In this document: positions 57,502 to 59,721 of the stretch, piece after piece
Layout of the letters: the number at the start of each line of letters is the position of its first letter
How positions within the stretch are numbered: position 1 is the first letter of the stretch
DNA from: a virus
Direction: 5' to 3' (one strand)
Virus record (IMG/VR): IMGVR_UViG_3300032116_015770
DNA length: 64,000 bases
Position numbers and translations under genes: made by a program
Notes under the pieces: model-generated
Told to the model about the DNA's origin: nothing
The model's input: the letters and a program-made list of their open reading frames with translations, nothing else
The model's database searches: none

Positions 57502-57693
57502 ATGATAATTTGCTCCTGTAGAAATATACGTGAATCAGACTTTCCAGATAAAGATAAATTAATTTTACGTCTGTATGAGGATGACGCGCAATGTAGGGTT
57601 TGTTTAGAGAATATCGATAGGTACAAGAGTAAACCGAATACGTTTATGGGTGCTTGGGCTTACTATAGTTTAAACAAAGAGTTTAGTAAATAA
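57502..57693 (+). CDS. Bfd-like [2Fe-2S] small protein
   Basis: MIICSC...QCRVC (CxC...CxxC). Confidence 0.6.
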   Translation: MIICSCRNIRESDFPDKDKLILRLYEDDAQCRVCLENIDRYKSKPNTFMGAWAYYSLNKEFSK

Positions 57694-57704
57694 ATATTTT
57701 TAAT

Positions 57705-58054
57705 TGTTGTATGATGCAAACTGAAAAGGGTTCTGGACGCGGGTTCGACTCCCGCCTGGTCCACCAAAAGGAGATTGTATGCCAGTAGATATGTACTACT
57801 ATACTGAGAGTGAATGGAATCGTTTAGGGTGTGGACCTCTTCCACCTGAACGAGATATTCGTAATAAGGTAAAGTCTTCTTTTGAGGGGCCAGACATGGT
57901 TTCGACAGGGTCAAGAGTAGGGGAGTGGACAACACGTCAGGCGATCGACGTTAATGAAGCAAATAAGTAATCGCAAATGACGAGTACTACGCTCTAGCAG
58001 CTTAAATTGCTAGATGGGGTTTCGGTAGCTGTCCTTATTACCCAATCAGCTACC
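57705..58054 (+). ncRNA. ssrA: circularly permuted two-piece tmRNA: acceptor piece ~57705-57766, intervening 57767-57886, coding piece 57887-~58054
   Basis: T-arm GCGGGTTCGACTCCCGC + CTGGTCC-A-CCA precedes GGGCCAG (G3.U70 pair); tag ANDEYYALAA* at 57973-58005; outer ends approximate. Confidence 0.93.
57779..57970 (+). CDS. ORF starting in the tmRNA intervening segment
   Basis: AAAGGAG SD; reads through the tmRNA mature 5' end. Confidence 0.5.
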   Translation: MPVDMYYYTESEWNRLGCGPLPPERDIRNKVKSSFEGPDMVSTGSRVGEWTTRQAIDVNEANK

Positions 58055-58076
58055 TTAATGATTTTCAGTACGGTAG

Positions 58077-58084
58077 TATAAATA
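58077..58084 (+). promoter_or_regulatory. T4-type late promoter upstream of pqqA
   Basis: Exact intergenic TATAAATA. Confidence 0.7.
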
Positions 58085-58160
58085 ATATTTTAGTAGATTC
58101 ACTTCATATGTTCAATAGATAATATGGACCGGCAATAGTGCCGCCATAAAGGAGAAAAAT

Positions 58161-58235
58161 ATGAAGTGGACTACACCTGCAGCTCAAGATATGCGTTTTG
58201 GTTTTGAAATTACCATGTATATCGCTAATCGATAA
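58161..58235 (+). CDS. pqqA: PQQ precursor peptide PqqA (24 aa, not in ORF track)
   Basis: MKWTTPAAQDMRFGFEITMYIANR with W..P, R.GFE and E-x3-Y core; AAAGGAG SD. Confidence 0.95.
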   Translation: MKWTTPAAQDMRFGFEITMYIANR

Positions 58236-58296
58236 ATAAATTGAGTTGGTAGATCTCTAAAACTACCATCACACAAACACACAAAAGGAGATGTAA

Positions 58297-59147: not shown

Positions 59148-59461
59148 ATTTAATGGAAACACTTATAGTATGGAAAGAAAAAGCAGTAAAGTTTTTTGAG
59201 TCGTTTCCTAAAGCATCTGCTGATGTATTTGCCTGGATAAGTATTGTTATATTATGCTTAAGTAATATACCAAGTTATTATGCATTGATGACGGCTGTAA
59301 CGGATAAGACTCCTCCCCTGGATATGTCCTTAATTGTATGGGTCGGTCTATTGCTTTATTTCTTCCGTTCAGCTATACTTAAAGACATGATTATGGTAGC
59401 AACTATTGGATTAGGTTTTGCTATTCAACTCATCTTTTTAGGGCTCATTTATTTCATATGA
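59144..59461 (+). CDS. three-TM membrane protein
   Basis: Three hydrophobic helices. Confidence 0.65.
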   Translation: MNLMETLIVWKEKAVKFFESFPKASADVFAWISIVILCLSNIPSYYALMTAVTDKTPPLDMSLIVWVGLLLYFFRSAILKDMIMVATIGLGFAIQLIFLGLIYFI

Positions 59462-59721
59462 CCGACGACATAACTGAACTAACTGATGCGTTAGTAATTA
59501 CCAAGCGCTTTAGATCACCTAATGAGTTTAGTATCTTCATTGATGAGCGAGTTAATAAACTAAAGATTGGTTACATGGATGCAGTTATTAATTACTGCCA
59601 GGAAATGGATATTGATGTTGAATCCATAGGTCCATTAATAAATCAAAAACTTCGTGAAAAGATACAAGTAGAGGCCGAGCAGGCAAATATGATTAAACCA
59701 AGAGGTCATCTGCCTATATGA
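59458..59721 (+). CDS. gp33: late transcription coactivator (T4 gp33)
   Basis: FS..I...V...YMDAV..YC..DVE..LREKIQ.EA; precedes gp59. Confidence 0.88.
   Translation: MTDDITELTDALVITKRFRSPNEFSIFIDERVNKLKIGYMDAVINYCQEMDIDVESIGPLINQKLREKIQVEAEQANMIKPRGHLPI

Follow-up and report, generated by a model that had tools for sequence, protein, structure and literature searches.

The 24-residue open reading frame in the window, by which we mean the whole 64,000-nt stretch of DNA that was analysed, was confirmed as a genuine, intact and stand-alone PqqA inside a bona fide phage. Probably, this pqqA is a functional auxiliary metabolic gene that supplies the consumable PQQ precursor to the PqqB-E proteins of the host. 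We regard precursor supply as the most economical reading of a stand-alone phage pqqA because the peptide is under selection, because the gene recurs in viral contigs and in cultured methylotroph phages, and because candidate host-type genomes encode pqqE and PQQ dehydrogenases.

The ORF scored 38.9 bits against the PqqA family of Pfam (PF08042, cut-off 21.1, E 7.8e-10) and 39.1 bits against the equivalog model TIGR02107 of NCBIfam (cut-off 20). A six-frame family search returned it as the single PqqA site of the whole phage genome (E 1.2e-9). With 24 residues it lies within the range of this family of short peptides (about 20-40 residues), and its translation contains the Glu-x3-Tyr pair, from which PQQ is formed after crosslinking, as did the intact peptide that had originally been predicted. 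The strong ribosome binding site claimed together with it was likewise found (Table 1); an SD-like motif precedes pqqA in 108 out of 113 viral loci. Two antisense ORFs overlapping pqqA were unsupported. The 75-nt pqqA is shorter than the minimum gene length usually applied by gene callers, e.g. Prodigal.

Table 1. Features at the pqqA locus (positions in the window)
Feature	Position	Strand	Remarks
Circularly permuted two-piece phage tmRNA	57657-58096	+	Rfam tmRNA_permuted 139.8 bits, beta_tmRNA 137.4 bits
TATAAATA, T4-type late-promoter motif	58077-58084	+	Read directly; 84 nt upstream of pqqA ATG
Weak sigma-70-like element	58098-58125	+	8/12 matches, 16-nt spacer; under promoter-scan threshold
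5'-UTR stem-loop	58123-58148	+	Ends 1 nt before ribosome site
Shine-Dalgarno sequence AAGGAG	58149-58154	+	Read directly; 6 nt before pqqA ATG
pqqA coding sequence	58161-58235	+	24 codons and stop, ATG start; crosslink pair Glu16/Tyr20
GATAAATA, second late-promoter-like motif	58231-58238	+	Overlaps pqqA stop; 66 nt before 90-aa gene
Candidate H-type pseudoknot, then A-rich stretch and CA-rich leader	58243-58267 (leader to 58296)	+	
Conserved 90-aa phage gene	58297-58569	+	Downstream neighbour of pqqA, probable co-transcript
gp33-type late coactivator	59458-59721		Downstream of cell-wall hydrolase, before gp59 helicase loader

The phage record comprises 165,076 bp with direct terminal repeats, is estimated to be 100% complete (IMG/VR) and was obtained from lake water; the window represents its bases 1057-65056. 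With a GC content of 35-37%, the phage is distantly T4-like, sharing about 70% nucleotide identity with cyanomyovirus core genes and carrying T4-like core genes on both sides of pqqA. The gene order at the locus is exonuclease, 2OG-Fe(II) oxygenase, permuted tmRNA, pqqA, 90-aa gene, cell-wall hydrolase, gp33-type coactivator and gp59, and the predicted position of pqqA amid phage genes was thus borne out. Family searches that were positive in control genomes detected no pqqB, pqqD or pqqE in the complete 165,076-bp genome. For pqqC no match was obtained in the complete genome either, with a family search that also matched no control genome; a tblastn search of the window with PqqB, C, D and E of Limnobacter gave zero matches, so that pqqC is covered for the window only. 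The original prediction of a window without pqqB-E was upheld and, by a check that it had itself proposed, extended to the whole genome for pqqB, pqqD and pqqE. PQQ-dependent dehydrogenases including methanol dehydrogenase were not found in the phage genome. The lack of an association of pqqA with pqqBCDE on this genome does not disqualify the peptide as a member of the PqqA family because bacterial genomes also possess pqqA copies distant from pqqE.

Stand-alone pqqA genes are common in viruses. Searching IMG/VR with two back-translated DNA core patterns yielded at least 120 stretches each, i.e. at least 240 viral contigs, and all of the 240 pattern matches listed were genuine PqqA ORFs of 22-24 codons. 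Query proteins PqqB, C, D and E were taken from a verified Limnobacter operon, which was first run by tblastn against 120 viral loci, three cultured-phage loci and the window, and as a second set from an Acinetobacter operon. With both sets, none of the 240 listed viral loci had a pqqB-E match beside pqqA. This contrasts with bacterial loci, in 85 out of 120 of which pqqB adjoins pqqA. Among the viral matches listed, nucleotide similarity to hosts around pqqA never extended over more than 144 nt, and since it ends within this distance the viral contigs do not represent host fragments. The similarity between viral and host pqqA regions stops after about 110-144 nt, which is longer than the ORF of 72-75 nt. 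Such alignments suggest a mini-cassette including untranslated flanks as the transferred unit.

A tblastn search of GenBank phages with the peptide matched 12 records. These included four strains of the OM43 myophage Melnitz, the OM43 phages Venkman, MEP301, MEP401 and MEP402, the LD28 phage P19250A, and one viral contig from spring water. The two remaining records, labelled 'Acinetobacter phage MD-2021a', were rejected as cases of phage pqqA, being bacterial contigs with a full pqqABCDE operon; in CAKLQF020000010.1 (102204-114275), fur and ppk accompany pqqABCDE, indicating a bacterial chromosome mislabelled as phage. Every genuine GenBank phage match infects Methylophilales or Methylophilaceae. 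Other named methylophages (MEP431-434, HIM624-A and others) were unmatched by tblastn in a collection that may not include them. The pqqA copies of Melnitz, Venkman and P19250A are intact with ribosome site and ATG, and they contain the Glu/Tyr pair, found here by tblastn and thus independently of the search pattern. No pqqB-E was matched near pqqA at these three loci by tblastn with the Limnobacter set. Genes besides pqqA are shared with the Venkman, P19250A and Melnitz loci by at least 35, at least 18 and at least 3 viral loci, respectively, each counted separately. In Melnitz (MZ577097, 76100-76208) pqqA is unannotated, a spurious antisense 'hypothetical protein' having been called over it, and the Venkman and P19250A copies fall into gaps of the annotation. 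The isolate papers of the cultured phages do not mention a phage pqqA.

Small RNA genes were observed as neighbours of pqqA in several phages, namely the tmRNA in the window and tRNA genes in Melnitz, where 10 nt separate the end of pqqA from a tRNA-Leu gene, and in some large contigs. In nine of the latter, pqqA lies inside a long array of phage tRNA genes or at its border. A tRNA or tmRNA gene within 150 nt of pqqA was found in 14 of the 240 listed loci, whereas random placement within these loci predicts 8.3. We make no claim of an enrichment from this mild excess.

Purifying selection acts on the viral PqqA peptide itself. In 101 unique viral sequences among the matches listed, nucleotide diversity at codon positions 1, 2 and 3 was 0.19, 0.16 and 0.46, and pN/pS was 0.26. 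The search pattern itself prescribed Glu and Tyr in the 240 listed viral copies. W3, P6 and R12 are invariant in the 101 listed sequences, though they are located outside the pattern; this invariance comprises four different codons for P6 and all six Arg codons for R12. Nearly all genuine bacterial PqqA peptides listed keep W, P and R of the N-terminal leader as well, with R12 replaced by Q in one of them. Furthermore, pqqA has kept its slot in phages that share no more than 45-65% identity in the flanking proteins.

The downstream neighbour provides a view of this slot in the lineage. The 90-aa protein has no match in Pfam or PHROG, and 104 viral relatives were found. Of these, 80 loci with 65-86% identity were compared, 73 of which had enough upstream DNA. 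Only 10 of the 73 relatives have pqqA in the 1.5 kb preceding the 90-aa gene, and 49 of the 63 relatives without it possess the permuted tmRNA upstream of this gene. The spacer between tmRNA and 90-aa gene appears to be a hyperplastic slot because its length varies from about 20 to 1750 nt among the relatives. As the slot is devoid of pqqA in 63 of 73 cases, pqqA is an accessory insertion that would be dispensable for the lineage, although relatives could carry pqqA elsewhere in the genome. In 34 of 76 relatives, NATAAATA or CTAAATA is found 55-95 nt upstream of the 90-aa gene, and late-type motifs occur in the slot of relatives both with and without pqqA. In the window, TATAAATA and GATAAATA bracket the pqqA cassette, GATAAATA falling into the 55-95-nt range at which relatives have their motif; this layout is repeated in a relative with an identical peptide.

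The region following pqqA can be folded into a candidate pseudoknot with stem 1 formed by 58243-45 and 58255-57 and stem 2 by 58248-52 and 58263-67; compensatory changes between loci were found in both stems. It matched no Rfam family even at E<=10, and its identification as a preQ1-type riboswitch was rejected. A role as a pqqA-specific 3' element was likewise discarded, as relatives lacking pqqA also have the pseudoknot before the 90-aa gene. Candidate pseudoknot and CA-rich leader belong to the 5' leader of the 90-aa gene and not to the pqqA cassette.

The original prediction placed pqqA under a late promoter. Copies of TATAAATA are not enriched across the window (6 vs 11 expected). Genome-wide, 7 out of 12 copies are intergenic and only 6.4% of the DNA is non-coding. 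The distance of 84 nt to the start codon of pqqA exceeds the 5-51 nt found at the other intergenic copies in the genome. Among the viral matches listed, TATAAATA occurs within 170 nt of pqqA in 15 of 227 loci, representing several independent lineages, at a background expectation of roughly 1% per locus. A putative late promoter ahead of pqqA is supported by the intergenic enrichment, by the presence of a late-type motif in the same slot of relatives and by its recurrence upstream of viral pqqA. Because pqqA sits behind this late-type promoter, late transcription jointly with the downstream 90-aa gene is likely. Read-through transcription from the tmRNA, called by ARAGORN at 57674-58096 with a tag ending in ...YALAA, is also possible, since no terminator was predicted on the plus strand between tmRNA and pqqA.

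The weak sigma-70-like element corresponds in position to a near-consensus TTGACA-N17-TATAAT promoter in four pqqA-bearing relatives. In most relatives with pqqA, among them the closest and the other syntenic ones, a sigma-70-type promoter followed by a stem-loop precedes the gene instead. Hence, the predicted late promoter gained from the genome-wide intergenic enrichment and the slot motif in relatives, and lost ground through the promoter architecture of the closest pqqA-bearing phages. The segment 58112-58160 (49 nt), which includes the stem-loop, folds with -11.2 kcal/mol (z = -2.84 vs shuffles). Different hairpins are found at this position upstream of pqqA in relatives.

On the host side, 401 sampled Burkholderiales genomes were searched for pqqA at the DNA level and matches were obtained in 54; two unpublished genomes among these are the basis of no claim. 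The best DNA matches (78-88% identity) came from small genomes of 1.3-2.6 Mb. The five genomes examined that contain the closest pqqA DNA all encode pqqE above the cut-off and XoxF-like dehydrogenases. The streamlined 1.3-Mb genomes G377 and G181 each contain pqqA twice in identical form, at a distance of hundreds of kb from pqqE and also far from the XoxF-like gene. The peptide encoded by both genomes recurs unchanged in the LD28 phage P19250A and in the commonest viral type (at least 21 loci). Given these separate host copies and this identity, free-standing pqqA cassettes of hosts are probably what the phages picked up. Multi-copy pqqA genes located apart and highly expressed during PQQ synthesis have been documented (PMC9851590). 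The window peptide differs slightly from the G377/G181 subtype, and its nearest bacterial relatives (20 of 22 positions identical) come from MAGs of freshwater Comamonadaceae, Rhodoferax and Oxalobacteraceae and are not of the streamlined Methylophilaceae type. A peptide of 24 residues is too short to resolve the host family. The leading candidate for the host is a PQQ-making freshwater member of the Burkholderiales in the broad sense, with Methylophilaceae favoured; the GC content of the phage agrees with that of published T4-like phages of Methylophilaceae.

In the proposed scenario, the phage would make the 24-residue PqqA precursor during infection from a compact cassette of promoter remnant, 5' stem-loop, strong ribosome site and ORF, inserted between the permuted tmRNA and a conserved late gene. 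PqqD/PqqE, PqqB, PqqC and a protease of the host would then convert PqqA to PQQ, one peptide being used per molecule, and PQQ serves as cofactor of periplasmic XoxF/Mxa-type methanol dehydrogenases or other quinoprotein dehydrogenases. The PqqA peptide is the sole component of this pathway that is consumed. The short host pqqA mRNA would presumably be lost once a T4-like phage shuts off host transcription, and the phage copy could sustain cofactor supply, and hence energy generation, through a long latent period. We infer that pqqA is expressed and timed accordingly within infection, that its product is processed to PQQ and that the phage benefits from it.

Several points count against precursor supply. 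PQQ is recycled, and new synthesis may not limit a single infection cycle. Moreover, many bacteria can import PQQ (PMC12124388). Only 10 of 73 relatives in the lineage have pqqA in the slot, and the window peptide is nearest to the Comamonadaceae and Oxalobacteraceae types rather than to that of the streamlined Methylophilaceae. The originally proposed supply of a consumable precursor draws strength from a genuine, selected and recurrent stand-alone pqqA, while the slot is without it in 63 relatives and the idea had been published in 2020.

Four other explanations were considered, all of which are less well supported than precursor supply. The phage may raise PQQ above its normal level for a different aim, such as redox or oxidative-stress protection or the operation of glucose and alcohol dehydrogenases in a non-methylotrophic Burkholderiales host. 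The freshwater Comamonadaceae, Rhodoferax and Oxalobacteraceae MAGs that provide the closest peptides, in place of the 1.3-Mb methylotroph type, fit this explanation, as does a phage without methanol dehydrogenase. We nevertheless consider it unlikely, as the genuine GenBank phage matches all infect Methylophilales or Methylophilaceae, so short a peptide cannot resolve the host family, and the GC content fits the published Methylophilaceae phages. That the peptide is a decoy or inhibitor which sequesters PqqD/PqqE of the host, or serves some purpose outside PQQ formation, thereby lowering or redirecting PQQ synthesis, is very improbable. The reactive residues of a decoy would be expected to diverge, whereas the invariant substrate residues, among them the Glu/Tyr pair, are all retained and one form abundant in viruses does not differ from the host peptide.

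The variable slot, with pqqA missing in 63 of 73 relatives and a spacer of differing content, would also suit a neutral passenger, i.e. a small host cassette recently captured in a hyperplastic spot and without function for the phage. Against this stand the purifying selection over the 101 unique viral sequences listed, the retention in the same slot despite diverged flanking proteins (only 45-65% identical) and the independent acquisition by unrelated phage types, and we assign very little probability to it. With a late-type promoter on one side and the structured leader of the 90-aa gene on the other, pqqA could finally be taken for a regulatory upstream ORF, the translation of which mainly controls this late gene while the peptide is irrelevant. 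Such a function would not need a residue-for-residue match to a host cofactor precursor, and in relatives this leader serves expression of the 90-aa gene without any pqqA, which leaves this explanation with hardly any likelihood.

Beyond precursor supply, a more general but doubtful possibility is that pqqA moves as a mini-cassette of about 110-140 nt, consisting of promoter, stem-loop, ribosome site and 23-24 codons. It may have been transferred repeatedly between streamlined methylotroph chromosomes and unrelated phages, and its preferred insertion sites may be hyperplastic slots or highly transcribed slots with small RNAs. If this were true, presence or absence of pqqA within a lineage would mark the dependence of the host on PQQ, and in uncultured phages the gene could serve as a marker of host range or metabolism; precursor limitation would then be directly testable in the cultured OM43 and LD28 phage-host pairs.

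In abundant methylotrophs of lakes and coasts, carbon and energy enter metabolism through PQQ-dependent methanol dehydrogenase. Should precursor supply prove true, upkeep of PQQ by phages would tie infection to methanol turnover and provide a clean example of a phage that carries only the consumable substrate of a host pathway. Cultured methylotroph phage-host pairs allow for a direct test of this hypothesis. The gene escapes standard gene callers, and since the annotations of all three cultured methylotroph phages examined omit or misrepresent it, its frequency is underestimated in metabolic surveys of viruses.

Viral pqqA has been known as a helper gene since 2020 and is not new with the phage studied here. 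Coutinho et al. (2020, Microbiome 8:163; PMC7678222) reported PqqA in a T4-like Methylophilaceae phage of 35% GC and arrived at the same interpretation. This Lake Baikal phage population, VP_266, resembles our phage in its freshwater origin, its T4-like nature, a GC content of about 35% and a PqqA precursor gene that stands alone and was read as boosting PQQ for methanol oxidation by the host. Baikal populations were also reported to carry methanol dehydrogenase and, in a sister population, radical-SAM proteins, whereas our phage genome has neither a PQQ dehydrogenase nor pqqE. What the window adds is the site of insertion beside the phage tmRNA, the late-type motifs on either side of the cassette and the pattern of pqqA presence and absence among relatives of the lineage; PMC7678222 contains no account of the insertion site, the promoters, the selection or the census, all of which come from the present analysis.

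Orphan pqqA genes are known from methylotroph chromosomes, namely Methylovorus MP688 (Ge et al. 2015) and Hyphomicrobium (PMC9851590), and were found here in G377 and G181. They belong to the same family as the phage copy, share its length and agree with it at the invariant residues W, P, R, G, E, T and Y. Their transcription is separate from that of pqqBCDE, and one viral type is identical to a host peptide. In contrast, the phage copy resides on a phage replicon with phage promoter motifs, is flanked by tmRNA and a late gene, and has no other pqq gene with it.

An analogy can be drawn to cyanophage psbA and comparable auxiliary metabolic genes, which stand in for a host component with rapid turnover; there, too, the phage brings only what is exhausted first upon host shut-off and leaves the remaining machinery to the host. 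Unlike psbA, pqqA does not encode a protein subunit but the consumed substrate peptide of a cofactor pathway. The PeSL (promoter-early stem-loop) cassettes of T4-type phages, mobile regulatory modules by which accessory genes are shuffled (Arbiol et al. 2010, PMC2839356; Comeau et al. 2014, PMC4122927), may be regarded as a conceptual parallel. Like these, the pqqA cassette is a small accessory ORF in an apparently hyperplastic region, bracketed by promoter-like motif and stem-loop and present or absent among close relatives. It differs from PeSL in that the stem-loop follows a sigma-70-like promoter, and late-type motifs bracket the pqqA cassette.
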